Notes under the pieces: generated by a model
Told to the model about the DNA's origin: nothing
Seen by the model: only the letters and a program-made list of their open reading frames with translations
Databases searched by the model: none
Program-made: the position numbers and the translations under genes
Assembly: GCA_041484135.1 (NCBI GenBank)
Contig: JBGPHD010000002.1
Coordinates: 1 to 54,871 of the forward strand
Direction of reading: 5' to 3'
Origin: Gemmatimonadota bacterium
Lineage (GTDB): Bacteria; Gemmatimonadota; Gemmatimonadetes; Gemmatimonadales; JACORV01
DNA length: 54,871 nt
Part shown: in pieces, positions 11,087 to 43,116 of the stretch
How positions within the stretch are numbered: the stretch's first letter is position 1
How the letters are laid out: every line of letters starts with the position of its first letter

Positions 11087-11088
11087 CG

Positions 11089-27704: not shown

Positions 27705-27752
27705 AAAACGCCCTCAAACAAAGGCCCGGCAACGCTTTAGCGCTGCCGGGCC
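27705..27752 (-). terminator. Rho-independent terminator ending the cohesin-dockerin operon
   Basis: Minus strand: GGCCCGGCAGCGC-UAAA-GCGUUGCCGGGCC (13 bp with one G.U, which is an A.C mismatch on the + strand), followed by UUUGUUUGAGGGCGUUUU. It begins 23 nt after the stop at 27775. Confidence 0.7.
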
Positions 27753-27774
27753 TCGCTTGCTCGAACCTCGACGA

Positions 27775-30700
27775 CTATGGAGCGACTGGCGACCGCGCCG
27801 GCCGGGGCGCACTGGGCTGGCGACCCTTCTGCCACGCATTCGGGAATGCCCTCGGGCCAAGGCGCGCGGCGCGCGGCGTCACTGCGGGACTTGGCGGCCG
27901 CTGAGCCGCCTGCTGGCGCGTGGCCTCGGCCCGGGCCTGCTCCCGCTGTGCCAGCGCGGCTCGGCGTTCCCCGGCTGCCAGCGCGGACGTGGGAGCCGAC
28001 GGCGCGGCGGCGCCGGTCCGAACGCGCGCGATGTTCCTGCTCGCCAGCACGCGCGGTGCCGCCGGCACGCCACTCGGCGCGCTCGGCAGGAACGGCATGA
28101 AGATGATGCCCGCCGAGACGACTGAGTCACCCACGGTTGCACCGTTTGTCACGGCGCAGTCCACGCCCGTGACCTCGACTTTGCAACGGGGGCCGAACGG
28201 GTCACCCCAGTAATTGCTGTCGGCGTCCACCGTCGTCGTGTTCGGATAAGCGAGGTTGATCGCCCCGCCGACGACGTTCCCCTGGATGACGTTGTTGGCG
28301 GCGGACGGTGACGTGAACGGGCTGCTCGCATCCACGAAAATGCCGTATGCTCCGTTGCCTTGGAATCGGTTGAACTCGGCGCGTCCGCTCCCTCCGGCGC
28401 CGAAATTGATCCCGTTGTTGGTATTCGCGGCCAGCTTGTTGCTGTCGGCGTGGACCAACGATGCGTACACCCAGATACCGTCCACGCCGCTGCCGGTGAT
28501 GGTATTGCCGGTGGCGAAAACCGTGTCGCTCATGGCGGCGAGCAGCAGCCCAGACAGGCCGCTCCGCGTGATGGTATTCCGGGTGACGCGCGCCGTGAGG
28601 CCGCTGTAGACGTGGATGGCCTCGAGCGCGGTGCTGTCCACCGTGTTCCCCGACACGCTGGTCTGGCCGGTCAGGTTCCCCAAGCGGATGCCGTTCAGAC
28701 CGCTCACGCGGACCACGTTGCTGTCCACCCGGGCGGCGGCGCCGAAGTACATCTCGAGGCCGGTGGTGCTGCTGCTGTCCACGGTGTTGCCGACGATCAC
28801 GGTGGAATCCAACGGCGTGTCGAGATACACGCCATTGCCGTTCGCGATGAAGGCGTTGCGCCGGATCTCCACGGTGCGTTCGCCGTTGTAGGCGGCCACG
28901 CCGGCCTCGAAGCCCCGGATCCGGGAGTCGCGCACCACCAGCCGCCCGCCGTTGACGTGCACTCCCCCCTGGTACACCGTCAACTGTCCGGTAAGATCCG
29001 CCGAGTCCACCTGGACGAGCGTCAGTTGATCCGCGTAGATGCCGATGCCCGTCACCGACACCGTGTCGTGCACGCTGATGAGCGTGTCGGGTCGGCTGCC
29101 GGACTCTCCGCACTCGGCGATGTTGATCCCGTTGTATCGGGCGTTGCTGATGCGGTTCCCGATGGTGGTGACCTCCATCCGGATATCACCGCAGATGTTC
29201 ATGCCGTCGCCCTGCAACGTGTTGCTGAGGTGGTTGTGCCGCAGGGTGTAGCGGCCGCTCTGGAGCTCCAGTCCGTAGCTGCCGAACGAGCTGTCGCGCC
29301 CCGTGGTATCCACCACCAGGGAATCGATCGTCCCCACGGCGGCCGTGGCGGAGAAGCCCGTATGATCGCTGCCGATCACGGTGTCGCCGAGCGAGGTGAG
29401 CGAGACCACCGCGAAGTTGGTGCTCACCTCGATGCCCCGGGCATACCCGGTATAGAGGGTCGGCGTCCCGACGTTCCTCACGGCGTTGTGCTCGAGGACG
29501 ACGATCGGCGCGCTGACGCGGATCCCGGCTCCGGCCGCGTTGGTGACCCGATTCCCCGCGATCACCGCGCGTCCCGCGTCGTGCAGGACCTCGATGCCGA
29601 CGCACTGGGCGTTGGTGATGACGTTGTTGCGCACCTCGCTGAAGTTCACGCTGGACACCGTGATCGCCTGCGGGCTCCCGCAGTAGGGATACGTTCCCAC
29701 GCTGTCGCGCAGGATCTGGTTGTTCCTGACGAACGCCGAGTCCGCCTGGTCGATCTCGATGCCGTCGTCGTTGTAACGGTTGATGACGACGTTCTCCACC
29801 ACCGCACGCCCCAGGTCCCGCTGGCCCGGCGCGGCCCGGGGGCCCGGGCGGGCGGCGCCCTGCACGGAGGCCTGGCTGAGGATCTCGATGGCGGGGACGC
29901 CTCCGCCCTCGCCCAGGTCCCCGAACGCCGAGTCGACGCGCACGTCCCGCACGATGTTGGCGTGGCCCTCGAGGTAGATCCCGTTCCCGCGCACGATGAG
30001 GTGTGCCAGCTCCATCGTCCCCGCCGGGGAGCCGGCGCTCACGGTCTGGCAGCTCGGGCAGCCGTCCAGGCGGGAATCGATGATGGGCCGGTTCAGGGAA
30101 TCGCCGAGCAGGACCACCGACACGCTCGCCGAGACGCGCTCCTCGTACACGCCCCCCGCGACGTGGACGGTGTCACCGTCGCTGGCCACGCTCATCGCGT
30201 CCCCGATGAACGCGAAGGGTAGTGCTGCGGTGCCGGTCTGGGTCGGCGCATAGAGCGAGCGCCCGACGTCCACGAACCAGTTCCGGCGTCGCGCGAGGAC
30301 CACCACCTTGAGCGTGCCCCGCACGCCGGGGCCCAATTCCGCGGTCAGCACCGCGACGCCGGCGTCCCGCGCCTCGACCCGGGGGTTGTAGTAGTCGTTC
30401 ACGAACGCCGCCACCACGGAGTTGGAGGACCTCCATGTGAGGCTGGCCGCCGGCACCACCCGCCCCGACTCGTCCCGCGCCTGGACCTGGACCTGGACCT
30501 GCTGCCCCCTCTGGAGCTCGATGCTGTCTGGGAGCACCACCAGCGTCGAGGCCGCGCCGGTGCCGCAGGCGCCCGCGGCGGGCAGGCCGATGCGGAAGCC
30601 CGTGACCGGCAGGCCGACCGAATTGCTGAGGATGATCAGCGCGTCGCGCGAGGTGACGTTGCCGTCCGCGTCCACGTCGGCGAGCGCGCTCTGCACGATC

Positions 30701-31392
30701 AGGAGCGTGTCGTAGTCGTAGCCTTCGCCGTTGAAGATGGTGTCCACGACCAGCGTGTCCGCCGGGAGCCCCACGACCTTGGACAAGGCGATCAGCCCGT
30801 CGCGGCTGTTGGACACGCCGTCGAAGTCCGTGTCGCCCCAGGTGCCGAGGGACCGGCAGAAGACCCCGTCCACGACCTGCGCGAGCGGCAGCAGGTCGGC
30901 GAACGTGCCGGCCTCGGTCAGCTCCTGGAGGTCGAGCGTGATGGCGCTCGGCGCGGCATCCGTATACACGTAGAAGCGGATGGTGAAGAGCGTGATGACG
31001 CCCGTCGCTCCGCCCGGCCGGAGGGCCGTGAGCTTCAGCACACCGCTCGAGTAAACGCTGTCGGTGTTGACGAGCGGCTCGGCGAACCCGCTCGGCGAAA
31101 GGACCTGACTGTAGGACAGCTGGGCCGGATCGGTCACGAGGCGCAGACGGTAGGCGCCGAGCGAACGCCCCGGGGCGCCCGTCATGTCCACCGTGACCGG
31201 CACATCGACGTAGTTCCCCGTGCGGGCGGCGAGGTCGCCCCCGACGCGCACCACGATCTGCGGCGCGCGCTCGGCGGGGGCGGTGGAAGGGCGGAATGCC
31301 GCCGCGACGGACGCCCAGGGCGCCGGCGCGTGAGCGCCTAACGCCAGCCCGAGCGACGCGAGCGCGACGCGGAAGGTCAGGCCCGCGCTCAC
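27775..31392 (-). CDS. Large secreted protein: cohesin-like + dockerin-like cassette, Big_2, right-handed parallel beta-helix (PbH1/NosD-like) repeats, basic Ala/Arg/Gln-rich tail
   Basis: 1205 aa with a signal peptide. The GTG start overlaps the upstream TGA (GTGA). Dockerin-like repeats GDTDFDGVSNSRDGLIALSKVVGL and ADVDADGNVTSRDALIILSNSVGL. Ig-like segment LVVLPDSIELQRGQQVQVQVQARD. Many N-x-I/V-x-G beta-helix turns, and a terminal SNYWGDPFGP cap. Confidence 0.8.
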   Translation of the reverse strand: MSAGLTFRVALASLGLALGAHAPAPWASVAAAFRPSTAPAERAPQIVVRVGGDLAARTGNYVDVPVTVDMTGAPGRSLGAYRLRLVTDPAQLSYSQVLSPSGFAEPLVNTDSVYSSGVLKLTALRPGGATGVITLFTIRFYVYTDAAPSAITLDLQELTEAGTFADLLPLAQVVDGVFCRSLGTWGDTDFDGVSNSRDGLIALSKVVGLPADTLVVDTIFNGEGYDYDTLLIVQSALADVDADGNVTSRDALIILSNSVGLPVTGFRIGLPAAGACGTGAASTLVVLPDSIELQRGQQVQVQVQARDESGRVVPAASLTWRSSNSVVAAFVNDYYNPRVEARDAGVAVLTAELGPGVRGTLKVVVLARRRNWFVDVGRSLYAPTQTGTAALPFAFIGDAMSVASDGDTVHVAGGVYEERVSASVSVVLLGDSLNRPIIDSRLDGCPSCQTVSAGSPAGTMELAHLIVRGNGIYLEGHANIVRDVRVDSAFGDLGEGGGVPAIEILSQASVQGAARPGPRAAPGQRDLGRAVVENVVINRYNDDGIEIDQADSAFVRNNQILRDSVGTYPYCGSPQAITVSSVNFSEVRNNVITNAQCVGIEVLHDAGRAVIAGNRVTNAAGAGIRVSAPIVVLEHNAVRNVGTPTLYTGYARGIEVSTNFAVVSLTSLGDTVIGSDHTGFSATAAVGTIDSLVVDTTGRDSSFGSYGLELQSGRYTLRHNHLSNTLQGDGMNICGDIRMEVTTIGNRISNARYNGINIAECGESGSRPDTLISVHDTVSVTGIGIYADQLTLVQVDSADLTGQLTVYQGGVHVNGGRLVVRDSRIRGFEAGVAAYNGERTVEIRRNAFIANGNGVYLDTPLDSTVIVGNTVDSSSTTGLEMYFGAAARVDSNVVRVSGLNGIRLGNLTGQTSVSGNTVDSTALEAIHVYSGLTARVTRNTITRSGLSGLLLAAMSDTVFATGNTITGSGVDGIWVYASLVHADSNKLAANTNNGINFGAGGSGRAEFNRFQGNGAYGIFVDASSPFTSPSAANNVIQGNVVGGAINLAYPNTTTVDADSNYWGDPFGPRCKVEVTGVDCAVTNGATVGDSVVSAGIIFMPFLPSAPSGVPAAPRVLASRNIARVRTGAAAPSAPTSALAAGERRAALAQREQARAEATRQQAAQRPPSPAVTPRAARLGPRAFPNAWQKGRQPSAPRPARSPVAP
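30607..31260 (-). other. Cohesin-like + dockerin-like N-terminal cassette of the 1205-aa protein (aa about 45-262)
   Basis: The cohesin-style pattern (TGNYVDVPVTVDM..LGAYRLRLVTDPAQLSY..GVLKLTAL..GVITLFTIRFYV) is followed by two D-x-D-x-D-G-x5-D-a-L repeats. Cys179 and Cys276 flank the dockerin. Confidence 0.6.
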
Positions 31393-32966
31393 GGCGTCCT
31401 CCGGAACGACGGCGCGTCGTCTTCACCCGCGGTCAGGCGACGGATGGCGCCGGTACCGTTCTCGATCAACCAGAGCCCGTGACTGCCAAGAGACTGGAGG
31501 GTGATCACGATGCCCGGCGAGCCCCAGTCGACCAGGTTGGTGAAGTACCCGTACGGGTTCGCGGGCTGGATGCCCGTCAGCCCGATCGCACGCCGCGCCA
31601 CACCGCCGGTTCCCCCCACCAACCACACGCCCGCCTCGCTGGTCTGACCGCTAAGCCGCATGAGGGCGAGCGAGTCTCCCGCGGGCGACCAGCGCACGTC
31701 CCTGAAGCCGTTCGCGGAGAGGCCCGTGATCGTCAGGGCCGTGAGGCTGGAGCCGTCCGCGTTGATCGTCTTCACATTGCCGGACGAGAGGAAGGCGATG
31801 CGTACGCCGTCGCGGTTCCAGGAAGGAGTCCCCCCAGCGGGGATACCGCTCTCGGAGTCGTAGGTCTGGGACAACTGCACCTGCGACCCGCCAGTGGCGG
31901 TCATCGTCCAGAGACGGCCCGTGAGACCGAACACGATCTGCGAGCCGTCGGGCGACCAGTCGAGCGCCTCCATCGAGGTAGGAGTCAGAATGGCGGCGCC
32001 CGAGCCGTCCGTCTGGATCCGGCAGATCTCGCTGGTGAAGATGTCCGCCTGGTAGCAGTAGTAGGCGATCGTCGCGTCGTCGGCTGCGAGACGCGGCCCG
32101 ACCATCTGGCTCGCGTCAGCGCCGGTGGTCACGAGCTGGGGCGTGGTCGAGCCGGCGGCGAGATACATCAGCTGGACGTTGGGGCTCAAGGCCGGTGGCC
32201 AGCGGCGGAAGACCAGGCTCTCGCCCGGGGGCGTAAGCCCCGGGCACACGGACGGCACGCCCAGTGACAGGCGACTGACACCGTTGGTAGGCAGTCCGAT
32301 GGCATAGCTGAGCACCATCAACGCGTCGCGCGAGTTGACCATGCCGTCGGCGTCCACGTCGCCCACGCCGAGGTTGAACCCGTTCACCGGCAGGCCGACC
32401 GCCGCCGACAGCGCGATGAGCGCGTCGCGGGATTCCAGCTTGGCGTTGCCGTCCACGTCGCCGAAGAGCACGGTCGAGGTGCAGACCTGGCTGATCGGCA
32501 CGGTGAAGTTCTGGGCGAACGGATTGCCGTAGGGGTAGTAGCAGTAGTAAAAGAGCTGGGTCGTGTCCGCGGTCGCCCAGATGTACGCGCCGGCTGGTGC
32601 GCCCGGCTTGAGCTTCACCCGCAGCTTGAACGCCCCGACGTCGACGCCGGACACGCACCCGGTCCCTGACACCGTGAAGGTCCCGCTGGTGGTGGCGGAG
32701 TCGGTGATGCCGAGCCCGTCGGGGAGCGCGCCGATGATGTCGATCGCGGCCGGATCGTAGTGGAACGTCAGGCGCGCCGAGTACAGATAGTAGTAATAGC
32801 CGCTCGGGTTGGCGGCGCGGACGGGCAGCTGGACCTCGACGCCCGGCAGGAGCCCCACGGCGGTGTCTCCCGCCACGCTGCCCAGGTAGAAGGTCTGCGC
32901 CCGCGCGCCGCGCACGGCCGTGAGGACGAGCCCGAGGACGAGGAGCCCGGCCGCTGTCCGTCTCAT
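31389..32966 (-). CDS. Secreted protein: cohesin-like + dockerin-like cassette fused to TolB/PD40-type beta-propeller
   Basis: 525 aa with signal peptide MRRTAAGLLVLGLVLTAVRGARAQ. Dockerin repeats GDVDGNAKLESRDALIALSAAVGL and GDVDADGMVNSRDALMVLSYAIGL. Propeller blades with WSPDGSQIVF, SWNRDGVRIAF and WSPAGDSLAL. ATGA overlap upstream and GTGA downstream. Confidence 0.8.
   Translation of the reverse strand: MRRTAAGLLVLGLVLTAVRGARAQTFYLGSVAGDTAVGLLPGVEVQLPVRAANPSGYYYYLYSARLTFHYDPAAIDIIGALPDGLGITDSATTSGTFTVSGTGCVSGVDVGAFKLRVKLKPGAPAGAYIWATADTTQLFYYCYYPYGNPFAQNFTVPISQVCTSTVLFGDVDGNAKLESRDALIALSAAVGLPVNGFNLGVGDVDADGMVNSRDALMVLSYAIGLPTNGVSRLSLGVPSVCPGLTPPGESLVFRRWPPALSPNVQLMYLAAGSTTPQLVTTGADASQMVGPRLAADDATIAYYCYQADIFTSEICRIQTDGSGAAILTPTSMEALDWSPDGSQIVFGLTGRLWTMTATGGSQVQLSQTYDSESGIPAGGTPSWNRDGVRIAFLSSGNVKTINADGSSLTALTITGLSANGFRDVRWSPAGDSLALMRLSGQTSEAGVWLVGGTGGVARRAIGLTGIQPANPYGYFTNLVDWGSPGIVITLQSLGSHGLWLIENGTGAIRRLTAGEDDAPSFRRTP
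32292..32894 (-). other. Cohesin-like + dockerin-like N-terminal cassette of the 525-aa protein (aa about 25-225)
   Basis: Same order and spacing as in the two giant proteins. Cys162 and Cys241 flank the dockerin repeats. Confidence 0.6.
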
Positions 32967-35900
32967 GGCCGCCTCGCTGGTGCGTGGGTCGGCGCCGGCT
33001 GCGGGGTGGGGGCTCCGGCCGTGGGCCGGGCCCGAACGGCAGCGCGCGCCTGCGCGACGCGTGCAGCCTGCGCCGTGCGCGCCTGCTCGAGAGTCGCCCG
33101 CTCAGCCTCAAGCCGGCCCTCGATCCGCGCCGCTGCCGCCGCGCTCGCGACTCCGCGCGCGATCCGCTGCTGCTGCCGCGCCGCGAGGCGCTCGGCACGC
33201 GCCGCCGGAAGCCCGGCGGGGATCCGCGGCGCCGCGACGAACGCCGCCGGCTGCCGGCGCGCCGGGCGTACAGGCGCTGCTGTCCGGGCGGGAGGCATGG
33301 CCGCCTCGGGCGCGGGCAGCGCACGGGACGCCACCACGCGAGGCGCGCGTGCGGCGGTCGTGGCGAGCGCCCGCGGCGCCGGCGGCGGCGAAGACGCGTT
33401 CGGCGCCAGGAGCCATGGGAAGACGGCCCAGCTGTTCGACACGCTGTCACCGAGCGTCGCGGGATCGCAGTCCGAGGCGCAGCGCGGCCCGCGATCGTCC
33501 CCCCACCAGTTGTTGATCGCGTAGGACCCCTCGCTGTTGTCCCGCAACCCGAACGCGTTGCCACTGATGTTGTTCAGCGCGATCCCCCCACCGAAGTTGA
33601 TATAGGGGGAGAGGTAGATGCCCTGGTTCAGGCTGCCCGTGATGGTGTTGCGCGTGAGCAGGCCGTTCCCGTACTCGAAGTCGATGCCCGTGCCGGAGCC
33701 GGAGATCGTGTTCGAGTCCACCTGCATGGTGGTCGTGTCCCCTGAATAGTCGTAGACGAGGACCCCGGAGCCTGCCGCCCGGCGGATGGTGTTGCCCTGG
33801 GCCGCCGCGAAGTACTTGAGGCCGTACATCAGCCGGATGCCATCCTGCTGCACGTCCTGGATGCTGTTCGCCGCCACGACCGCCGTGTCCACGTACTCCA
33901 CGCTGATGCCGTCGCTCTTGGAGAGCGAGATCGTGTTCGAGTCGATCAGGGTGGTGGCCCGGTACCCGTAGTAGTAGTACCCCTGGACGAAGATCAGTCC
34001 GTTCGACAGGTAAGCGCTGCTGTCGCCCGTGATCACGTTGTTGGAGATCCGGGTGCGCGTCGTGCCCTCGGCGTACACGCCGCCGCCGCCGCTGATGCCC
34101 GGCAACGTGATGGTGTTCCGCAGGATGCTGTCGTCCTTCGTGCTGGCCCCGTACTGGCTGAGGTACACGCCGTAGAAGCAGCCGGCGATCACGTTGTCCG
34201 CGACCACCGCGTCGGTGGCGCCGACGTCGACCCCGACGTCACCCTCGAACTGGGTGATGCACTGGACCTGGTTCCGGAGCACGTCGAAGTGCATGCGGAC
34301 GGTGTCGGCGTAGTTGTCGCCGTTGACGCGGATAGCGGTCTGGCCGCCGCGCGTCACGATGTTGTCGGCGACCACGCCCGTCACGGAGGTGTCGTTGAGC
34401 GTCAACGTGATCGAGTAGTTCACGTCGTCGAAGACGTTGCGCTGGACCGATTGGGCGGCGTACCCGAAGGCATCGATCCCCTCCGACTGGCCGGCCACGA
34501 AGGTGTTGTCCTCGATCGTGACGGGGCCGTAGTACGACGTCACGCCGGTGTAGAACCCGTTGATGGTGTTGTTCCGCATCGTCAGGCCCGCCGGGCTGCA
34601 CGTCGGGCACCCGATGAAGTAGTTCCCGTAGAACTGCACCCCGTACTCCACCCGCCGGAACGTCGAGTTGGTGACCGTGAGGCTCGAGTCGCCGTTGGTT
34701 TGCACCGCCTGGTTGACGTTGGTGAAGTCCACGCTGTCCACCGTGGTGCGCGCGTCCTGGGTGTAGACCGCGTCCGCGCAGAGGTCGCAGCGCGGATCCC
34801 CGGTGAAGCTGGTGTTGCGGACGTCCACCACGCCGCCGCCGAACCCGCCGCCGCCCACGTACACCTGGAAGACGCTGTTCGACACGTCGCGGAAATAGCC
34901 GCCCCGCACCCGCACGTACGGCGTGTTGTAGATGTAGCCGCTGGCGGACGGGAGCACCGCCCGCACGGAATCCACCGTGACGCTGTCCAGGTCGTACGCG
35001 GTGAGCCAGTTGTCGTCCGAGTTGTAGATCGAGTCGCCATGGAAGGCGATGAAGCCGCCGCTCGTTTCGCACTGGTTCTGGTAGACCAGGTTGCGCTCGT
35101 CCACCCGCAGCACGTTGTTGGTGAACACCGCCGAGCCCAGGTCCTCGAGGTACATCAGGGTGGAGCCGCTGCGCTGGAGCGTGCTGTTCTCCATGGTCAG
35201 GTGGAACTGCGCGCCGCTGCAGCTTCTCCCCAGCTCGAGCCCGTAGTACGAAAGGTCGTGGATGTTGGACCGCGCGATGGCGACCGAGTCCACGTCCGGC
35301 GCATAGACCCCGGAGCGGCCGAAGTCGCCGATCTCGGTGTCCTCGATGACCAGCGTGTCCACGTGGTAGTTCATCTGGATCGCGTCGGAGTCGAAGTTCT
35401 CGACCCCCCGGCCGATGATCCGGCCCTTCTCGACCCGCACCGAGGCCGTCACGGCGTCGGTCACGATCCCGTTCTCCACGCCCTGGCTCCTGAGGCCGCG
35501 GAGCAGCACGTTGTCGGGCCCGTCGATCTCGACGGCGTTCCAGAGGTTCTCGAAGCCGACGTTGACGATCCGGCGGGGTCCGAGGCCGTACACGTAGACG
35601 CCCGAGCCCGCGAGGAAGGGATCGCCCACGCCGAAGATCGTCGGCCGCGTCCCGTCCAGGAGGGTGTCGCCCAGCAGCACGATGTCGGCGCCGATATCGA
35701 CCGGCCCCTGATACCGCCCCGGCCGGAGCTCGATGGTGTCGCCCGCCTGCGCGAAGTCGAGGGCCTGGGCGGTCGTCCCGAAGGGCAGCGCGGCGGTACC
35801 GATCTGGTTGGTGGCGTTCACGGCCGCGGCGTCCACGACATGCCGGGTGCGCGACGCGAGGACCGTGATGGTCGCCTGCGCCGAATCGTTGGCGCCCCGG

Positions 35901-36901
35901 AGCGCCGTGATGACGACCGAACCAGCGGTGTAGGCGCTGAGGAGTCCGTCCGCGTCCACGTCGGCGATCTCCACGTCGCTGGAACGCCAGGTCACGTCGC
36001 GCAGGGTCTGGAGCGCGCCGCCGGCCACCGCCGCCCGGGCCTCCAGCTGCACCGTCTGGTCCCGCACGATGTCCACCGGGACGGGCGTGATGGACATCGC
36101 GATGGCACCGCCGGCCGCGCACGCGCCGCCGGCCAGCAGCCCGATGCGGAAGCTGGTGACATCGATCCCGACCGCGTACGACAGGATGATCAGCGCGTCG
36201 CGGGTATCGGTGACGCCGTTGCCGTCCACGTCCCCGAGGGGGATGGCGAAGTTCCCGACGTTCAGGCCCACGGCGTTGGAGACCGCGATGAGCGCGTCGA
36301 GGCTGTTGACGAACCCGTCCTGGTTGATGTCCCCGTAGAGGCCACCCGCGGGGCAGAAGAGGCGGTTCGTCACCAGCGCGCTCGGCCGGAGGTTGGCGAA
36401 GGTGCCGGCCGCGTAGAGCTCGCTCAGGCTCATCACGAGGGTGGTCGTGTCGCCGATGAGCGGCGTGAAGCGCAGCGTGCCGAGCGTCACCATGCCGCCG
36501 GCGCCGGCCGGATTGATGCCCGCGAGCCGCAGGACGCCGTCGTTCAGCGAATCGGTATTGGCCGTCGTGACGCCGAAGGTGCCGTTGATGAGCGCGTCGA
36601 ACTGCAGCACCGCCGGGTTCCAGGAGAGCCGGGCCGCGAAGGAGCCGATCTTCTCCGTGCGCAGCGTCATGTCCGCGATGATCGGCGTGTAGAACGGCAC
36701 GCCGACCACCGAGGTCAGCTGGCCCCCGGGCCCCACGGGGATCTCCTGGGCACGCGCGGCCCGGGGCGCGAACGCCGCCCCGAGCAGGGCGAGGACGATC
36801 GGCGCCACGCGCCTCACGGCCTTCCCTCCGGTCCGCGCGCGGGAGCGGAGCCCAGGGAGGCCCCGCCGGCGCGGTCCGTCGTGCGACCCGGTCGTCATCA
36901 C
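32963..36901 (-). CDS. Large secreted protein: cohesin-like + dockerin-like cassette, Big_2, long parallel beta-helix, basic Ala/Arg/Gln-rich coiled tail
   Basis: 1312 aa with a signal peptide ending APRAARAQ. Dockerin repeats GDINQDGFVNSLDALIAVSNAVGL and GDVDGNGVTDTRDALIILSYAVGI. Big_2-like segment (VTWRSSDVEIADVDADGLLSAYTAGSVVITAL). Dozens of beta-helix turns, and an NNWWGDDRGP cap. Confidence 0.8.
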   Translation of the reverse strand: MMTTGSHDGPRRRGLPGLRSRARTGGKAVRRVAPIVLALLGAAFAPRAARAQEIPVGPGGQLTSVVGVPFYTPIIADMTLRTEKIGSFAARLSWNPAVLQFDALINGTFGVTTANTDSLNDGVLRLAGINPAGAGGMVTLGTLRFTPLIGDTTTLVMSLSELYAAGTFANLRPSALVTNRLFCPAGGLYGDINQDGFVNSLDALIAVSNAVGLNVGNFAIPLGDVDGNGVTDTRDALIILSYAVGIDVTSFRIGLLAGGACAAGGAIAMSITPVPVDIVRDQTVQLEARAAVAGGALQTLRDVTWRSSDVEIADVDADGLLSAYTAGSVVITALRGANDSAQATITVLASRTRHVVDAAAVNATNQIGTAALPFGTTAQALDFAQAGDTIELRPGRYQGPVDIGADIVLLGDTLLDGTRPTIFGVGDPFLAGSGVYVYGLGPRRIVNVGFENLWNAVEIDGPDNVLLRGLRSQGVENGIVTDAVTASVRVEKGRIIGRGVENFDSDAIQMNYHVDTLVIEDTEIGDFGRSGVYAPDVDSVAIARSNIHDLSYYGLELGRSCSGAQFHLTMENSTLQRSGSTLMYLEDLGSAVFTNNVLRVDERNLVYQNQCETSGGFIAFHGDSIYNSDDNWLTAYDLDSVTVDSVRAVLPSASGYIYNTPYVRVRGGYFRDVSNSVFQVYVGGGGFGGGVVDVRNTSFTGDPRCDLCADAVYTQDARTTVDSVDFTNVNQAVQTNGDSSLTVTNSTFRRVEYGVQFYGNYFIGCPTCSPAGLTMRNNTINGFYTGVTSYYGPVTIEDNTFVAGQSEGIDAFGYAAQSVQRNVFDDVNYSITLTLNDTSVTGVVADNIVTRGGQTAIRVNGDNYADTVRMHFDVLRNQVQCITQFEGDVGVDVGATDAVVADNVIAGCFYGVYLSQYGASTKDDSILRNTITLPGISGGGGVYAEGTTRTRISNNVITGDSSAYLSNGLIFVQGYYYYGYRATTLIDSNTISLSKSDGISVEYVDTAVVAANSIQDVQQDGIRLMYGLKYFAAAQGNTIRRAAGSGVLVYDYSGDTTTMQVDSNTISGSGTGIDFEYGNGLLTRNTITGSLNQGIYLSPYINFGGGIALNNISGNAFGLRDNSEGSYAINNWWGDDRGPRCASDCDPATLGDSVSNSWAVFPWLLAPNASSPPPAPRALATTAARAPRVVASRALPAPEAAMPPARTAAPVRPARRQPAAFVAAPRIPAGLPAARAERLAARQQQRIARGVASAAAAARIEGRLEAERATLEQARTAQAARVAQARAAVRARPTAGAPTPQPAPTHAPARRP
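36164..36745 (-). other. Cohesin-like + dockerin-like N-terminal cassette of the 1312-aa protein (aa about 53-246)
   Basis: Pattern VVGVPFYTPIIADM..IGSFAARLSWNPAVLQF..GVLRLAGIN..GMVTLGTLRF, then the two Ca-binding repeats. Cys183 and Cys261 flank the dockerin. Confidence 0.6.
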
Positions 36902-36908
36902 CGGCGAC

Positions 36909-37430
36909 CTAGTGGCTCGCCGCGCGGCTGAGGAAGACCTGCGGGGAGACGCGCAGCTGCGCCTGCAGGTTGGTCAGCGACATCGCCGCCGACAGCTCCT
37001 CCATCTGCAGCACGAGGTCCGCCGCGTAGTTGGCGCCCTTCACCTCGAAGGTGCCGTCGTACAGCACCAGGTTGGCGAACCCGCCCGCCGACGCTCCGGC
37101 GAACCGGATCTCGCCGCGCGGCGCGTTGGCCGGGTTGGCCACCCGCAGGCCGTCGCTGATCACGTTCTCGCTCCTGAACTCGAGGCGCGCCGGGTTGAAG
37201 CGCAGCCGGCCCGTGAAGCTTCCCAGCTTGAAGTTCTGCTGGGTGCCGACCTGGACCTCGACGCGGACGCGGACCGTCTGGCCGACCCGCGCCGTCAGGT
37301 TGTCCACGGTGACGAACGCCTGCACCCCCGTCTGGGTGGGCGGCGGCGTCGGCGCGGTGGGCCGCGCCGGCTGGTCCTGGCAGGCGGTGACCGCCAGGCT
37401 GATGAGGGCGAGTCTGAGAACGTGCATCAT
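36909..37430 (-). CDS. Small lipoprotein consisting of a single cohesin-like domain
   Basis: 173 aa with lipobox LISLAVTAC, a Pro/Thr linker, then ARVGQTVRVRVEVQVG..KLGSFTGRLRFNPARLEF..GEIRFAGAS..LVLYDGTFEV, the same pattern as the other cohesin-like modules. Confidence 0.7.
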   Translation of the reverse strand: MMHVLRLALISLAVTACQDQPARPTAPTPPPTQTGVQAFVTVDNLTARVGQTVRVRVEVQVGTQQNFKLGSFTGRLRFNPARLEFRSENVISDGLRVANPANAPRGEIRFAGASAGGFANLVLYDGTFEVKGANYAADLVLQMEELSAAMSLTNLQAQLRVSPQVFLSRAASH

Positions 37431-37470
37431 CGGTTCCTCCCTGGGGTGCGGCCGGAGCCGCGGAACGTCG

Positions 37471-40197
37471 TCACTGTACGCGTACCGTGCTGGCGGTGAT
37501 CACCGCCGCCGACACGTACTGGGTGAAGGTCGGGTTGATGCCCGACAGGTCCGTGACCGAGAACGTGAGCGGCGAATTGCCCACGGCGTTGGCCACGAAC
37601 ACCACCATCACGAGGCCGACGGTCGGTCCGGCGGTGCCCACCGCGTTGGCCGCGCCGAAGCGCAGCTGGCCGCTCGCCGTCGCCGACTCGTTCAACGTGG
37701 GCGCCACGAACCCGCCGGCGACCGGATCGCTCCGCACGTAGGTCAGCGCCGCGGTGCTCCAATCGAGCTCCGCGTTGTAGCTGCCGAGCTTGTCCGGCGC
37801 GACGCGGCGCAGGTCCACCTGCACCAGCACCCGCACCGTGTCGCCCGGCTTGACGATGTCGAACGCGCGCCCGTCGCTGATGGCGCTCACCACGGCGGCC
37901 CCGACGCCCGCCACCGCCACGGTGATGGAATCGAACACGGTGCCGGTGCTGCCGACGGCCGACGCCACGATCACCGTGGTACCGTTGGTGTTGCCGGTGA
38001 CGAGGCCCGCCGCGTTCACCGACGCTACCGCCGGCGTGCGCGAGACGAACGTCAGTCCGGTCACCGTCGCGGCGGCGCCGCCGGCGTCCTTGCCGGTGAC
38101 GCTCAACGACACCGTCCCGTCGACCAGCAGCACGCTGAATCCGGGCGCCACGGTGATCGCGGTCAGGGGCGGCGGCGCCACCACGAAGGTCACGGCGACC
38201 GTCCGCGGGCTGTTGCTCGCCACCGGCGAGGTCACCGGCACCGTCGCCGTGTAGGTGCCTGCCGAGAGCCCGGCGAGCGACGCGGTGAGCGTGAGCGTAG
38301 CCGGCGCGGTGGCGGGGTCGTTGGTGAAGTTGCCGTCGGCGTTCAAGTCGGGGAACCTGGCCGTCAGCCAGCCGGTCGCCCCCGCCCCGTACGTGATAGT
38401 GCCGACGAGGAGGCCGTTCAGCGTGCCGCCGCTGCTGTTGGTCACACTCACGGTCTGTGACGCGGGGTTGGCCAGCGTGACGGTGCCGTTGAACGTGATC
38501 GTCGCCGGCGCGAGGGCGATGGCCGGCCCGGCCGCGACGTTGAAGGTGACCGACACCGTCTGCGGACTGTTGGTCGCCACGCCCGACGTCACCGGCACGC
38601 TCGCCGTGTAGGTGCCCGCGGCGAGGCCCGTGATGTTCGGGGTGAGCGTGAGGGTGGACGGCGCCGTCGAGGTCGAGAACGAAGCGCTGAGCCAGCCGGT
38701 CGCCCCCGCGCCGTAGGTGATGGCGCCCGTCGCGAGACCGCTCAACGTCCCGCCGCTGCTGTTCGTCACGCTGACCGTCTGTGCCGCGGGGCTCGCGCCC
38801 GTCGCGATGCCGTTGAACGTGATGGTGGTGGGCGCGAGCGCGATGGCCGGCCCCGCCCCGACGACGAACGAGACCGAGACCGTCTGCGGGCTGTTGCTCG
38901 CCACGCCCGACGTCACCGGCACCGTGGCCGTGTACGTGCCGACGGCGAGGCCCGTGATCGTCGGCGTCAGCGTCAGCGTGGACGGCGCCGTGGTGTTGAG
39001 CGAGGCCGCCAGCCAGCCCGTCGCCCCCGCCCCGTACGTGATGGTGCCGACGGCGAGGCCGCTCAGCGTTCCGCCGCCGCCGTTCGTCACGTTCACCGTC
39101 TTCGCCGCGGGACTCGCGCCGCCGGTGACGCCGTTGAACGAGACGGCCGTGGGCGCGAGCGCGATGGCCGGCGGCGGGGCCACGACGAACGTGACCGCGA
39201 CCGACTGCGGGCTGTTCGACACACCGGACGCGGTGACCGGGACGGTCGCCGTATAGGTGCCCGCCGGGAGACTGTCTACTTGGGGCGTCAGCGTGAGCGT
39301 CGCCGGAGCCGTCGTCCCACCTAACGTCGCCGAGAGCCAGTCGGTGGCACCCGTCCCGTACGCGATCGTGCCGACCGCGAGGCCCGCGAGGACCTGGCCG
39401 CCGACGTTCGTCACCGCGACCGTCTGCGCCGCCGGATCGGACCCGCCGGACACCCCGTTGAACGTGATCGTCGTCGGGGCCAAGCCGATCAACGGCGCCG
39501 GCGCCGACGTCACGGTGACGCGGGCGCTGTCCCGGATCGTGTTCCTCGCCACGCTCGCGATGATGATCTCGACGACGCCGTCCGCCATGCCGAGCACCCG
39601 GCCCGCGGCGTCCACCTGCGCGATGTGGTTGTCCCGCGAGCGGAAGTGCACCGGCACGCTGTCGTCGGGCATCGCGACACCGAGCGTGTCGAAGCCCGTG
39701 TACGTGAGCGCCGCCGCCTGGCCGGGATTGATGGCGAACTGCCGCGGGTTCACGACCAGCGACCCGATGCCCTTGCCGGGGCCCACGTAGCCGGCCTGCA
39801 CCGGCTGCGGTGGCGCCGGGATGCCGGCGTGCAGCTCGACCGACTGCGTGCCCGCGTAGAGCTCCGTGCCCGAGGTCGAGTTGAACCCGTGGAACGCGAT
39901 GCCCACGGTGTCCAGCCCGCCGCCGACCCGCACAACGACCGAGAGCTGGATGGTGTCCTGCCCCGGCGGCAGGTGCCGGTAGATGGTGTCGGGCGGATTG
40001 GGCGGATTGTTGATCTCGAAGCGGAACGAGTCCACGTCGCTCGGCGCGCCGTCGAGCGGGCCGTAGCCTTCGAAGACCGGATAGAACGCCAATTGCACAC
40101 GCTGCCCGGCGTCGGGGGCGAGGGAGTCGAAGCATCCGAGGGCCGACAGGCACACGGACACCACCACTGCCAGGGCCGCCGGACGGGCTGCTCTCAC
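37471..40197 (-). CDS. Scaffoldin-like lipoprotein: N-terminal domain, Big_2, four tandem Ig-like (BACON/ASH-like) repeats, Big_2, C-terminal cohesin-like domain
   Basis: 908 aa with lipobox CLSALGC. The GTG start overlaps the upstream TGA (GTGA). Four repeats of 107-119 aa. C-terminus: VKPGDTVRVLVQVDL..LGSYNAELDWSTAALTY..GQLRFGAAN..VGLVMVVFVA. Confidence 0.8.
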   Translation of the reverse strand: MRAARPAALAVVVSVCLSALGCFDSLAPDAGQRVQLAFYPVFEGYGPLDGAPSDVDSFRFEINNPPNPPDTIYRHLPPGQDTIQLSVVVRVGGGLDTVGIAFHGFNSTSGTELYAGTQSVELHAGIPAPPQPVQAGYVGPGKGIGSLVVNPRQFAINPGQAAALTYTGFDTLGVAMPDDSVPVHFRSRDNHIAQVDAAGRVLGMADGVVEIIIASVARNTIRDSARVTVTSAPAPLIGLAPTTITFNGVSGGSDPAAQTVAVTNVGGQVLAGLAVGTIAYGTGATDWLSATLGGTTAPATLTLTPQVDSLPAGTYTATVPVTASGVSNSPQSVAVTFVVAPPPAIALAPTAVSFNGVTGGASPAAKTVNVTNGGGGTLSGLAVGTITYGAGATGWLAASLNTTAPSTLTLTPTITGLAVGTYTATVPVTSGVASNSPQTVSVSFVVGAGPAIALAPTTITFNGIATGASPAAQTVSVTNSSGGTLSGLATGAITYGAGATGWLSASFSTSTAPSTLTLTPNITGLAAGTYTASVPVTSGVATNSPQTVSVTFNVAAGPAIALAPATITFNGTVTLANPASQTVSVTNSSGGTLNGLLVGTITYGAGATGWLTARFPDLNADGNFTNDPATAPATLTLTASLAGLSAGTYTATVPVTSPVASNSPRTVAVTFVVAPPPLTAITVAPGFSVLLVDGTVSLSVTGKDAGGAAATVTGLTFVSRTPAVASVNAAGLVTGNTNGTTVIVASAVGSTGTVFDSITVAVAGVGAAVVSAISDGRAFDIVKPGDTVRVLVQVDLRRVAPDKLGSYNAELDWSTAALTYVRSDPVAGGFVAPTLNESATASGQLRFGAANAVGTAGPTVGLVMVVFVANAVGNSPLTFSVTDLSGINPTFTQYVSAAVITASTVRVQ
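38179..39504 (-). repeat. Four in-frame tandem coding repeats (321-357 bp each) inside the scaffoldin-like gene
   Basis: Protein repeats at aa 232-339, 340-446, 447-554 and 555-673. Consensus: PAIALAPTTITFNG..G.SPAAQTVSVTN.GGGTLSGLAVGTITYGAGATGWL.AS....APSTLTLTP.ITGLAAGTYTATVPVTSGVASNSPQTVSVTFVV. Recurring DNA landmarks cgccgt(g/a)ta(g/c)gtgcc lie at about 38247, 38603, 38925 and 39248. Confidence 0.85.
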
Positions 40198-41294
40198 ATC
40201 GTCTTCCGCACCGACATGCCGATACTGAAGCCCCGGAAGCCGATGTTGGTGGCGCCGCTGGGCAGGCTGCCGGTGTCGAAACGCAGGGACGGCTGGATCG
40301 ACATCGTCTCGCCCACCGCCACCTGATAGCGCAGGCCGAGCGAGAGCAGCGTGCCGGCCTTGGTCAACGTACTGTCTCCCTCACCGATCATGCGATACTC
40401 GACCGAGGGACGCAGCAGGTTGCGGCCACGCGTGAACGACAATCCCGCGCCGACCGTCACGAGGTTCTGCTTGCCAGTGGTCTGGCCGTTGATCGGCACG
40501 TCGCCCGCCGCCCGGTAGAGATCCCACCCGTACAGCGACAAGCCGACGTTGCCGAGCGGCAAGCTCAGCGACACCTGGCTGATGTACCGCCGCCCGGGAC
40601 GGAAGACGTCGGCGCCGCCGAACTCGTCGGTGCTGAAGCTCGAGTAGGTGAAGCCGGCCGAGAACCGCCCCTGGCCGATCACCCGGTCCACGCCCGCGCG
40701 GATGCGCACTTCGGCTCCCGCCCGGTACGTCGAATCCACACCCGCCAGCGGCGTGAAGCTGCCGCTCATCCGGTAGCTCCCGGCGATCCCGAGCGCCCAG
40801 CCGCCTAACGGCAGGGCCAGCGCGAGTCCCGTGGTGACGCTGGCGCCCGAGCCGAAGTTCGCCACCGGGAACGGGAAGAGGTTGGAGCCGATGGCGCCGG
40901 CCACCGCCAACTCGTCGTTGGAGAGCTTGGTCTTGCCGGTCGGGATGTTGGCCGTGAGCGTGAAGAGCGCCTTGTCGGAGATCAGCTGCACCACCGCGCG
41001 GGCCTGGATGTCCGTGAGCCCCGTGATCGTGCCGCTCCCCCCGGTCTCGTCGGTGCGCTGCGCCCGCGCGAAGCGCGTCCCGATGTCCACCGTGAACCGG
41101 TTCGAGAAGGGGAAGACCAGGCCGACGGGGACGACGAGCTCCGTCACCGTCTTGGTGCCGATCCCCGCGTCGAACGACAGGGAACGGTACTCCGCGCCGG
41201 TGTAGAGCGTCGGGCGCGCCTCCTGGGCGCACAGGGCCGCCGGCGCGACGAGCAGCGCCAGGAGGGCCGAGCGAGTCATCCGGGCAGCGCTCAT
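40194..41294 (-). CDS. Putative outer-membrane beta-barrel protein
   Basis: 366 aa with signal peptide MSAARMTRSALLALLVAPAALCAQ. Alternating hydrophobic beta-strand pattern with Gly/Ser/Thr-rich loops throughout. ATGA overlap with the upstream lipoprotein gene and GTGA with the downstream gene. Confidence 0.65.
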   Translation of the reverse strand: MSAARMTRSALLALLVAPAALCAQEARPTLYTGAEYRSLSFDAGIGTKTVTELVVPVGLVFPFSNRFTVDIGTRFARAQRTDETGGSGTITGLTDIQARAVVQLISDKALFTLTANIPTGKTKLSNDELAVAGAIGSNLFPFPVANFGSGASVTTGLALALPLGGWALGIAGSYRMSGSFTPLAGVDSTYRAGAEVRIRAGVDRVIGQGRFSAGFTYSSFSTDEFGGADVFRPGRRYISQVSLSLPLGNVGLSLYGWDLYRAAGDVPINGQTTGKQNLVTVGAGLSFTRGRNLLRPSVEYRMIGEGDSTLTKAGTLLSLGLRYQVAVGETMSIQPSLRFDTGSLPSGATNIGFRGFSIGMSVRKTM

Positions 41295-42637
41295 GTCGGC
41301 CTCCGGATGACGATCACGACGGTGCCGGTGGTGGGCCGGACGCTGCCGCCGGTCACCTCCGACGTGTTGTTGCGGTTGGCGGGCGGCGTCGTCTGCGTCT
41401 GCTGCTGCGCCGCCTGGTCCGACGTCTGCGTCCCCGCGACCGCGTTGGCCGCGTTATTGAGCGCGTCGGTCGGCGCGCCGGCGGGTCCGGCGGCCTCCTG
41501 CTGCGCGTTCTGCGTCACGGTGACGTCCACGTCGCTCACTGACTGGGTCGAGGCGGCGGAGAGGTCGGTGGCCGTCGCGGCGCCCTGCACCGCGGCCACG
41601 AAGCTCGGGTCGAGGCCCGACGCCTGGGTGTACGCCTCGCGCGCGGCCTGGAAGTCGCCCATGTCCTCGGCCTCGAGCCCGCGGCTGTAGGCGAGGAAGG
41701 CCTGGATGTTCTGGGTCGGACGCTGGTTGATCGAGGCCCGCTCCGCGTCGCTGAGCTGGATGCCGAGGTTCTCGAAGATCGAGAAGACGAGCGCCTTCTC
41801 GAGGTCGAAGATGCGACTGAGCTGGTCCGAGGCGTTGCCCGTGGCGGCCACGCCGGCGCTGCTCACGTCCACGACGGCCGCGTCCACGCGGAGCTGGTCG
41901 CCGCGCTCGGCGATCGTCCCCTGCACCACGCGTTCGGCCCGCAGCAGGCGGCCGCTGCGGACCGCGGTCTGCTGCTCGACCCGGTTCTGCTCCGACAGCC
42001 GCATCTCGTCCAGCATCGACTGCATCCGCTCGCGCTCCAGGACCACCACCTGCCGCGACTTGGCGAGGTCGGTGATCACCAGTTGCGCCAGGCCGCGGCC
42101 GAGCGGCTGGATCTGCGGGTTGGTCCCGGTATAGCTGAAGGGCATCACGGCAACGGTGTTGGGGGTCGGCGGCGTCTGGAGCAGCGTGGCTTCCGAGGCC
42201 AGCGACTGCCGCGCCTGGAACTCCAGCTCCCGCCGGCCGATGAGGGCGAGACGTTGCCGCGCGGTGTTCCGGAGCTCCCGGCTGCGCGCCACCGTGACAT
42301 AGCGCTCGTAGGCCGTGCGCGCGGCGGGGAAGTCGCCGAGCGCCTCGGTGGTCATGCCGAGATAGATGGCCGCGATGCCGTTGGAAGGATCGCGCGCCGC
42401 GGCGGTATCGAGCGCCGTCCGCGCTTCCTCATACCGGTTGGCCTTGAAGTACGCCACGCCCAGACGGGTGAGCGTCATGGGGTCGTTGGGCCGCTGGCTC
42501 CGCTCCGCCTCGAGCGAGGGAATGGACTGGGGTGTGATATCGCCGATGCGCAACGCCCCGCCGCCGGCACAGGCGGCGAGCGACGCGAGCAGCCCGAAAC
42601 GGACAACGTCCCGGGCGCGACGAAGGAGAGTGCTCAT
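41291..42637 (-). CDS. Lipoprotein with TPR repeats, CsgG/TolB-N-like domain and Gln/Thr/Ala-rich tail
   Basis: Trimmed to ATG 42637 (MSTLLRRARDVVRFGLLASLAACAGG, with lipobox). TPR-like LTRLGVAYFKANRYEEARTALDTAAARDPSN. Then VAVMPFSYTGTNPQIQPLGRGLAQLVITDLAKSRQVVVLERERMQSMLDEM, a CsgG-type signature. Confidence 0.75.
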   Translation of the reverse strand: MSTLLRRARDVVRFGLLASLAACAGGGALRIGDITPQSIPSLEAERSQRPNDPMTLTRLGVAYFKANRYEEARTALDTAAARDPSNGIAAIYLGMTTEALGDFPAARTAYERYVTVARSRELRNTARQRLALIGRRELEFQARQSLASEATLLQTPPTPNTVAVMPFSYTGTNPQIQPLGRGLAQLVITDLAKSRQVVVLERERMQSMLDEMRLSEQNRVEQQTAVRSGRLLRAERVVQGTIAERGDQLRVDAAVVDVSSAGVAATGNASDQLSRIFDLEKALVFSIFENLGIQLSDAERASINQRPTQNIQAFLAYSRGLEAEDMGDFQAAREAYTQASGLDPSFVAAVQGAATATDLSAASTQSVSDVDVTVTQNAQQEAAGPAGAPTDALNNAANAVAGTQTSDQAAQQQTQTTPPANRNNTSEVTGGSVRPTTGTVVIVIRRPT

Positions 42638-42682
42638 GGGCACGCCTCGACTGGTGAACGGGGAACCCTGCGGAATGGCGTG

Positions 42683-42712
42683 AATATGCAGGCGTCCCCA
42701 TGGCCGCGGCAA
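42683..42712 (-). promoter_or_regulatory. Possible sigma70-type promoter of the operon (TTGCCG-N18-CATATT on the minus strand)
   Basis: The hexamers lie at 42712..42707 and 42688..42683, about 45 nt upstream of ATG 42637. The match to consensus is only moderate. Confidence 0.25.
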
Positions 42713-43049: not shown

Positions 43050-43116
43050 GAAACACCTCCGCCGGAGAGAGTTATCCCCCGGCGGAGTCCATCGCAAGCA
43101 CGTCCTTCGTGTGTGG

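Follow-up and report, generated by a model that had tools for sequence, protein, structure and literature searches.

In a 54,871-nucleotide stretch of a Gemmatimonadota bacterium genome (assembly GCA_041484135.1, contig JBGPHD010000002.1, positions 1 to 54,871; this whole stretch is called the window below), seven genes, g1 to g7, form a compact operon. We conclude, with a probability of roughly 0.6, that it encodes a non-cellulosomal cohesin-dockerin system for cell-envelope assembly in Gemmatimonadales. Two of the products, g3 and g4, are lipoproteins with a cohesin and no dockerin, and three, g5, g6 and g7, are secreted proteins which begin with a cohesin followed by a dockerin (the CohDoc unit) and continue into a beta-helix or a beta-propeller. 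According to the proposed model g3 and g4 would be lipid-anchored cohesins, the former on a long, length-variable stalk and the latter in minimal form, and g5, g6 and g7 would be Sec-exported cargo, each starting with a rigid CohDoc unit. The cargo dockerins would plug in trans into the cohesins of g3 and g4, and the cargo cohesins would accept further dockerins, so that beta-helix and propeller subunits would join into anchored chains or into a lattice. The assembly would most likely face outward from the outer membrane and serve as an adhesin or coat rather than as a complex of enzymes. An outer-membrane module made of g1 and g2 would help to place the anchors or the cargo at or across that membrane. 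The binding of dockerins to cohesins is proposed here from their genomic association.

Organisation of the operon

The genes lie head to tail on the minus strand in the order given (aa, amino acids).

g1, 41291..42636, minus strand: 448-aa lipoprotein, lipobox LAAC
g2, 40194..41294, minus strand: 366-aa secreted protein with a signal peptide
g3, 37471..40197, minus strand: 908-aa lipoprotein
g4, 36909..37427, minus strand: 172-aa lipoprotein, essentially one cohesin module
g5, 32963..36901, minus strand: 1312-aa secreted protein, beta-helix
g6, 31389..32966, minus strand: 525-aa secreted protein, propeller
g7, 27775..31392, minus strand: 1205-aa secreted protein, beta-helix
Junction g1/g2, 41291-41294, minus strand: 4-nt stop/start overlap ATGA
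Junction g2/g3, 40194-40197, minus strand: 4-nt stop/start overlap GTGA
Junction g3/g4, minus strand: 40-nt gap, GGAGG precedes the ATG
Junction g4/g5, minus strand: 7-nt gap
Junction g5/g6, 32963-32966, minus strand: 4-nt stop/start overlap ATGA
Junction g6/g7, 31389-31392, minus strand: 4-nt stop/start overlap GTGA
Intrinsic terminator, 27713..27754, minus strand: 15-bp stem, 4-nt loop, then UUUGUUUG; closes the operon

A previous sequence-only reading of this DNA had described seven head-to-tail minus-strand genes, joined by four 4-nt overlaps and by gaps of 7 and 40 nt and closed by a strong intrinsic terminator. All the open reading frames (ORFs) were found and proved to be coding: in a window of about 72% G+C, the G+C content of g1 to g7 was 0.90-0.95 at third codon positions versus 0.49-0.59 at second positions, a strong coding signal across all seven. 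The junctions were confirmed by direct reading of the sequence. The stem of the terminator (27754..27721) is perfect and G+C-rich over its 15 bp and lies 20 nt past the last stop; its free energy of -39.7 kcal/mol (z = -5.3) was equalled by none of 200 shuffled sequences. Two details had to be corrected. The unit had been extended to 42712, but the start of g1 is most likely the ATG at 42636 (MSTLL...LAAC, 448 aa), since the orthologues have 451 aa, and the coding span is thus 27775-42636. The length given for g4 was 173 aa, and the product on record (P0001) has 172.

Modules of the encoded proteins

Among the operon's proteins the small lipoprotein g4 shows the highest conservation. It has 245 homologues, with 65-87% identity among the 120 listed, and some of them carry a precomputed hit to Pfam Cohesin (PF00963). 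The AlphaFold2 (AF2) model of g4 had a predicted local distance difference test score (pLDDT) of 84.5, and the top 43 PDB matches of this model in Foldseek were all cohesins (E 4.5e-6 to 1e-4, TM up to 0.69), including cellulosomal type I and type II cohesins as well as the non-cellulosomal cohesins of Archaeoglobus fulgidus and Clostridium perfringens. The g4 family profile gave nothing meaningful against PDB sequences. The modules of g3, g5, g6 and g7 were tied to the g4 profile by hhalign (85.4-97.0%, g6 being taken as a family): the values were 96.4% (E 1e-9) for the C-terminal module of g3, 97.0% for the N-terminal module of g5 and 85.4% for that of g7, and the g6 module, weak as a single sequence (31.8%), reached 93.5% as a family profile. 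Thus the cohesin-like modules claimed earlier for g3 to g7 hold up on the g4 structure matches and on profile homology to g4, and by the same evidence the N-terminal modules are not unrelated Ig or FN3 folds.

The dockerin assignment had been made from a doubled D-x-D-type repeat in g5, g6 and g7. In all frames of the 54.9-kb window the loop D-x-[DN]-x-[DN]-[GA]-x5-D-[AG]-L occurs six times, two each in these three genes and elsewhere none, and all six loops keep the canonical D1, D/N3, D/N5 and D12, with a helix next. Pfam Dockerin_1 (PF00404, cut-off 22.9 bits) scored 24.5 bits in g5 and 25.3 bits in g6; it was not reported for g7 at E<=0.1, where the motif is nevertheless present and a 30-aa insert separates the two repeats. 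The isolated g6 dockerin matched about 20 solved dockerins in the PDB (best E 8e-8), PDB matches were obtained for the g5 dockerin as well, and the helix S-R-D-A-L is near-invariant in both repeats across the g6 family. The repeats therefore belong to Dockerin_1 and are not generic thrombospondin type 3 (TSP3) or EF-hand calcium sites. The best solved match to the operon dockerins was PDB 8x39/8x3a, a 151-aa double-dockerin fragment of a 'serine protease', and a literature search for 8X39 found no describing paper.

In each CohDoc unit no more than about 7 residues separate the cohesin from the dockerin, which is of the canonical Ca2+-binding type with two repeats. A pair of Cys residues brackets the dockerin, being invariant in the g6 family (C162/C241) and having an equivalent in g5 and g7. 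Dockerins need a clasp between their termini, and to judge from the sequence the Cys pair is probably a disulfide clasp.

Behind the CohDoc unit the three proteins differ. In g5 the signal peptide, the cohesin (~36347-36748) and the Cys-bracketed dockerin (36119-36355) are followed by Big_2, by a right-handed beta-helix of about 800 aa, by an NWWG cap, and by a P/A linker leading to a basic, helical tail rich in R, E, A and Q (Pfam: Beta_helix 8e-28, NosD 1.6e-17, Big_2 1.5e-9). The order in g7 is signal peptide, cohesin (30859-31260), dockerin (30565-30858), beta-helix, NYWG cap and basic tail; Pfam gave Beta_helix 1e-30, NosD 4e-16, Big_2 as in g5, and Cohesin at 20.8 bits, below the cut-off of 24.1. 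The tails (32963-33390 in g5, 27775-28150 in g7) take up about 130 aa after the (N/Y)WWG cap, as a P/A-rich linker and then an R/E/A/Q-rich basic helix. A basic tail of this kind was present in 79 of 116 relatives of the g5 type, with a median length of 128 aa and a median net charge of +8, and oligomerisation or the binding of an anionic envelope polymer are possible roles for it.

In g6 the signal peptide, the cohesin (32484-32897) and the dockerin bracketed by Cys162 and Cys241 (32244-32483) precede a TolB-like beta-propeller (31392-32219). Its AF2 model (pLDDT 89.9, predicted template modelling score, pTM, 0.89) shows a 9-10-stranded all-beta N-terminal module and the helices 179-189 and 212-222 with a short helix between them. 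Propellers dominated the Foldseek matches of the whole model, the best being TolB (E 2e-14). The protein was rejected as a TolB, which is defined by a TolB_N domain plus a six-bladed propeller: TIGR02800 scored 34 bits versus a cut-off of 343, and the N-terminus is a CohDoc unit, not TolB_N.

No catalytic family was significant in the seven proteins in Pfam. The helix regions of g5 and g7 had no match in a PDB sequence search, and the faint matches of the beta-helix proteins were Pel9A-like and AlgG-like; DUF1565 stands beside NosD among their architecture matches. An AlgG-type epimerase was ruled out by the absence of the DPH(D/E) motif.

The 908-aa lipoprotein g3 consists of two borderline Big_2 modules, four tandem repeats of about 108 aa and the C-terminal cohesin-like module (~37474-37914). 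At the DNA level the repeat (38359-39474) has a 324-nt unit in 3.5 copies with 74-81% nucleotide identity. The four repeats noticed earlier are thus real, and their description as Ig-like stays a conjecture, as the 108-aa unit matches no Pfam family. The ORFs holding g3 orthologues measure 468-964 codons as open frames, upstream extensions included, and the called products in related loci have 572-681 aa versus 908 here, a spread of about 1.6-fold. The size of g3 thus varies between species, which suggests recent expansion and contraction of its stalk.

Behind the lipobox both anchors have a conserved sequence. In the g4 family the lipobox Cys and the D of C-Q-D-Q-P are invariant, and in g3 orthologues the Cys is followed by x-[DE]-x-[FL]-x-P. 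Both proteins and their orthologues (~40120-40135 and 37370-37385 in the window) therefore keep a single acidic residue at position +3 relative to the lipid-modified Cys, the corresponding sequence of g1 being C-A-G-G. The lipoprotein export signal of Bacteroidota is K-(D/E)2 or Q-A-(D/E)2 just after the +1 Cys (PMC5080379). With a single acidic residue at +3, g3 and g4 fall outside this definition, and the resemblance is suggestive only.

In g1, TPR (tetratricopeptide) repeats are followed by a TolB_N/CsgG/LpoB/FlgO-like alpha/beta domain, further TPR, a Q/T/P-rich linker and a C-terminal strand motif, TGTVVIVIRRPT. The Pfam matches were TPR_2 1.3e-13, CsgG 1.4e-9, TolB_N 1.5e-5 and FlgO 1.5e-4, and LpoB matched also, TolB_N, LpoB and FlgO (1.5e-5 to 1.5e-4) being weaker than CsgG. 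As to the earlier description of g1 as a TPR lipoprotein with a CsgG/TolB-N-like domain, TPR, a TolB_N match and the lipobox were found, while the CsgG match covers only profile positions 6-98 of 210, the N-terminal, non-channel half. Both the lipobox and the C-terminal motif are conserved in 21 orthologues. The motif (41291-41330), tG(t/i)(i/v)R(I/V)(I/V)(F/I)R(R/L/K)P, is strand-like and follows a disordered Q/T/P-rich linker of 60-80 aa; it may be a tethered strand which docks into the g2 barrel or another partner.

The secreted protein g2 is probably an outer-membrane beta-barrel of no described family. A barrel had been proposed for it before, and the signal peptide and weak OMP_b-brl matches agree with this, although all the matches are sub-threshold and confined to 3 of 14 family members. 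Taken as a family, g2 belongs to no Pfam or PDB family: its profile gave nothing meaningful against the PDB, the best E value (0.014) falling on short stretches of family-11 xylanases. Wherever a locus extends far enough, the gene is found upstream of g3.

Conservation of the gene block and a reduced variant

Conservation was followed by contig look-ups, a scan of one genome per species (28 loci) and tblastn. Every locus long enough has the order TPR lipoprotein, barrel, g3, g4 and three to five CohDoc genes, the latter running beta-helix, beta-helix, propeller, beta-helix. About 25 Gemmatimonadales species represented by metagenome-assembled genomes (MAGs) share the arrangement barrel, g3, g4, CohDoc cargo, down to about 50% g4 identity, so the synteny that had been put forward as a check on the operon is found in relatives. 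In the closer ones the flanks (PD40 protein, signal peptidase, cupredoxin) are syntenic too. The operon was rejected as a mobile or horizontally acquired island, since its flanks are syntenic across species and its GC is only a little lower than in the adjoining DNA. The complete gene order also occurs in L022 (JBLNGH010000674.1), a locus from a MAG labelled Acidobacteriota, all others being from Gemmatimonadales; the label is probably a binning error and not a sign of horizontal transfer.

The proteins diverge at different rates. Compared with the related locus L007, identity was 74% for the signal peptidase and 69% for the PD40 protein; 65% for g4, 48% for g2 and 45-49% for g3; and 40% for g5, 39% for g6 and 42% for g7. 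Cargo and g3 diverge about twice as fast as the flanking housekeeping genes. By tblastn, g4 was 48-73% identical in related loci versus 27-43% for full-length matches of g5 and g6. Within g6 the dockerin is conserved best, with 60% identity, cohesin and propeller reaching 32-34%; g4 is likewise highly conserved, and this parallel was counted for binding in trans.

An exhaustive representative search with the CohDoc unit gave 1411 clusters, 379 of them at E<=1e-10 and 122 at E<=1e-30, versus 3 matches when the g5 CohDoc module was used in a word-indexed homologue search. The unit is almost always N-terminal, in proteins of 1000-1400 aa. Among 44 relatives sampled with Pfam, 33 had Dockerin_1, 31 Beta_helix, 21 Big_2 and 10 Cohesin (E<=1e-3, best 8e-13), a type IX secretion system (T9SS) C-terminal sorting domain was present in one, and families of glycoside hydrolases (GH), polysaccharide lyases (PL), carbohydrate esterases (CE), carbohydrate-binding modules (CBM) or peptidases were found in none. 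The earlier view that no catalytic family explains the beta-helices is therefore upheld here and in the relatives. The best CohDoc relative, P0244 (2393 aa), has two matched stretches, one N-terminal and one at ~1338-1524, a cohesin-dockerin pair; either two CohDoc beta-helix proteins are naturally fused in it, or a missed stop has merged two adjacent genes.

A mini-variant of the system was observed in two Gemmatimonadaceae MAGs (L032, ~7800-12840; L031, 13-4800). It consists of a g3-like lipoprotein, a g4-like cohesin lipoprotein of 165-171 aa and a Sortilin/BNR propeller, in which the only matching module is a C-terminal Dockerin_1 (E 2.6e-11). In L032 the cargo start overlaps the g4-like stop by 4 nt. 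The g4-like small ORF of this locus reached 98.3% against the g4 profile in hhalign; the C-terminal module of the L032 g3-like protein failed to match that profile (2.5%), and the true g4-like gene is the separate small ORF. Judged from these gene neighbourhoods, the mini-variant provides the strongest argument that the cohesin lipoproteins receive dockerins in trans. Since it has neither g1 nor g2, these two genes appear accessory to the larger system.

The surroundings of the operon are ordinary chromosome (TolC/TetR, peptidases, methyl-accepting chemotaxis protein, TonB, acyltransferase and others), and the conserved neighbourhood holds the envelope genes SLT, PD40 protein and signal peptidase. 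No glycosyltransferase, exopolysaccharide (EPS), secretion-system, curli, or sugar transport and catabolic genes were found in the window. Upstream of g1 the following ORF was noted.

g0, 42801..43049, minus strand: 82-aa ORF between the hairpin 43087..43057 and g1

The hairpin is terminator-like and lies 3' of the cupredoxin gene. The tblastn matches of g0 are 61-76% identical and sit at the same position in L001, L006, L007 and L010; the product has no signal peptide and no Pfam match. Its membership in the operon is uncertain; it could be the actual first gene or have a regulatory role. Farther away, beside an M48 peptidase, 6126-15620 encodes a run of large predicted proteins (433, 814, 816 and 665 aa) that match no Pfam family at E<=1e-4; the one at 13623-15620 begins with a lipoprotein-like signal. 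At 20758-21780 on the minus strand a 340-aa secreted protein has a TSP3 (Ca-binding) repeat near its N-terminus, which is unrelated to the operon dockerins.

Alternative readings and relation to known systems

Some of the observations weigh against a surface assembly system. The modules in the window score 13.5-20.8 bits for Pfam Cohesin, whose gathering cut-off is 24.1. The mini-variant does without g1 and g2, the g2 family shows no detectable relationship to any known translocon (family profile versus PDB, Pfam), and the operon encodes no secretion system able to move folded beta-helices of 1200-1300 aa. A fixed, intramolecular arrangement would agree with the short linker of about 7 residues between cohesin and dockerin and with the high pTM of the g6 model. 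In addition, TolB, TolB_N/LpoB and NosD-like families are typically periplasmic, and beta-helix (CASH/PbH1) domains are often glycan-active enzymes of families poorly covered by Pfam. These points lead to the following alternatives.

The complex might be periplasmic, tethered by g1, g3 and g4 to the inner leaflet of the outer membrane and serving a scaffold, Tol-Pal-like or cell-wall role, with g2 as a membrane partner and not an exporter. The closest relative of the g6 propeller is TolB, the core of g1 matches TolB_N, LpoB, the N-terminal part of CsgG and FlgO, all of them periplasmic folds, and the beta-helices match NosD repeats, but the NosD and TolB matches are far below the family cut-offs. 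Dedicated secretion machinery is missing in and near the operon, envelope genes (SLT, PD40 protein, signal peptidase) stand in its conserved neighbourhood, and g3 and g4 fall short of the Bacteroidota surface-export signal. On the other hand, a stalk varying about 1.6-fold in length (572-908 aa) would be ill-suited to a compartment of fixed width. The cargo diverges faster than its neighbours and its gene number ranges from 3 to 5, both typical of exposed proteins, and one CohDoc relative has a T9SS sorting domain. To our knowledge every characterised cohesin-dockerin system is extracellular; a cellulosome review is in line with this. A periplasmic location is on balance unlikely.

Just as doubtful is that the operon is a cellulosome analogue, in which the beta-helices, as glycan-active CASH/PbH1-type lyases, hydrolases or epimerases, are displayed together by docking in order to process polysaccharide. 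Cohesin-dockerin systems classically organise carbohydrate-active enzymes, and the beta-helix/NosD/DUF1565 architecture is common to pectate lyases, AlgG and many glycanases, in keeping with the faint Pel9A-like and AlgG-like matches. It has to be set against this that no catalytic family is significant in g5 or g7, that the helix regions have no PDB sequence match and the epimerase motif is absent, that GH, PL, CE and CBM were found in 0 of 44 relatives, and that no sugar transport or catabolic genes are co-located. Membership in a cellulosome proper was rejected on the lack of GH, PL, CE and CBM in the seven proteins and the 44 relatives, and on the single cohesin per protein. A surface-type payload, as supposed in the assembly model, is favoured because of the fast divergence, the variable stalk repeats, the T9SS domain in one relative, the lack of GH, PL and peptidase families in the 44 relatives and the lack of glycosyltransferase or EPS genes nearby.

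As to g1 and g2, the sequence-only reading had proposed that the operon is self-contained and exports its own parts. This claim has become weak, as g1 is without the channel half of CsgG, g2 is an orphan family and the mini-variant lacks both. In its farthest-reaching form the assembly model would have the CohDoc proteins self-assemble head-to-tail on g3 and g4 as a new surface coat or fibre of a diderm, with g1 and g2, the g1 strand docking into g2, as a new outer-membrane translocon that flips the anchors or exports the beta-helices; we regard this whole extension as rather speculative and unlikely.

A further alternative denies assembly itself: the cohesin and the dockerin of each CohDoc pair would close upon each other in cis as a structural head, without intermolecular assembly, and g3 and g4 would be unrelated cohesin-fold lipoproteins. 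The linker of about 7 residues, the conserved Cys pair, by which both ends of the dockerin are fastened to the final strand of the cohesin, and the pTM of 0.89 for the three-domain g6 model would suit such a head. It leaves aside, however, that the mini-variant pairs cohesin-only lipoproteins with dockerin-only cargo, which is sensible only for binding in trans, that five cohesins stand versus three dockerins, and that the S-R-D-A-L helix is near-invariant in both repeats, as expected of an exposed recognition surface. Closure in cis is thus quite improbable. Finally, a synthase-dependent exopolysaccharide pathway (AlgK/AlgE- or PelB/PelC-like), with g1 and g2 at its outer-membrane end and the beta-helices as periplasmic modifying enzymes, is considered effectively excluded: the TPR lipoprotein and barrel mirror AlgK/AlgE, the TolB_N/LpoB-like fold of g1 presumably resembles PelC-type lipoproteins and AlgG is a beta-helix protein, but no glycosyltransferase, synthase or c-di-GMP receptor is encoded in the window or along the conserved flanks in related loci, and five cohesins and three dockerins would be left without explanation.

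The proposed system shares its modules with the cellulosome scaffoldins of Firmicutes (Clostridium thermocellum, Acetivibrio cellulolyticus ScaA/ScaB/ScaC; PDB 5nrm, 5k39, 3fnk, 4uyp), namely the cohesin jelly-roll and two-repeat, Ca2+-binding, type-I-like dockerins, and its anchored cohesin-only proteins beside cohesin-plus-dockerin proteins recall the adaptor logic of cellulosomes. An aromatic residue at dockerin position -1 is likewise reminiscent of the known dockerin 'intramolecular clasps'. The differences are considerable: the host is a diderm, the anchors are N-terminal lipids and not SLH domains or sortase, and each protein has one cohesin, unlike the multi-cohesin scaffoldins. The dockerin is Cys-bracketed and directly follows the N-terminal cohesin instead of standing at the C-terminus of an enzyme, GH and CBM modules are absent, and a TPR lipoprotein and a barrel are encoded in the same operon. 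The cohesins of A. fulgidus (PDB 2xdh) and of C. perfringens toxin complexes (2jh2, 2w1n, 2vo8), which ranked 16, 18, 35, 37 and 49 in the g4 Foldseek search, are also modules outside cellulose degradation. They occur, however, in an archaeon and a monoderm pathogen, on glycoside hydrolases or isolated proteins, and none of them is part of a conserved operon with lipoprotein anchors, barrel and beta-helix cargo.

Slam/type XI secretion systems (TXISS) have a DUF560 barrel with an N-terminal TPR domain, encoded beside lipoprotein cargo (PMC8406197). The TPR element and barrel genes immediately upstream of the lipoproteins in our operon, which may have to reach the surface, resemble this by analogy only; unlike in Slam, TPR and barrel are separate polypeptides and g1 is itself a TolB_N-like lipoprotein, and homology was rejected since DUF560 (PF04575) had no match in g2 or 13 orthologues at E<=1. 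A TPR scaffold with a barrel at the outer membrane, and a small alpha/beta lipoprotein fold, is also found in AlgK/AlgE, PelB/PelC, BcsC and PgaA, but here the synthase context is missing and g2 has no sequence match to those barrels. Like CsgG, g1 is a lipoprotein whose core matches the Pfam family (E 1.4e-9); a CsgG channel (PF03783) was rejected, because the region of the membrane-spanning hairpin is missing from the match and the window holds no CsgA/B/E/F partners.

In the open literature we found no description of cohesin-dockerin systems in Gemmatimonadota and no natural lipoprotein-anchored one in diderms, and a 2025 cellulosome review gives Gram-negative cohesin-dockerin display only as engineered examples. 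The modules are known; new are the lipid anchors, the N-terminal CohDoc unit with its Cys clasp, the non-enzymatic beta-helix and propeller cargo, and the TPR lipoprotein and barrel within the operon.

Non-cellulosomal cohesins and dockerins have long been catalogued, in most cases with no function assigned. The locus is a defined, conserved and compact case, whose clear anchors and cargo, together with the recurrent CohDoc unit and the mini-variant, make such a function directly testable with recombinant modules. Its lipoprotein-anchored cohesin-dockerin parts, suited to diderms by nature, also lend themselves to surface display. Parts of cellulosome assembly appear to have been reused, without recognisable enzymes, for an envelope complex in a diderm. 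If this holds true, the locus would represent a major structure of the envelope in Gemmatimonadales, a lineage that is common in soil but still little known.

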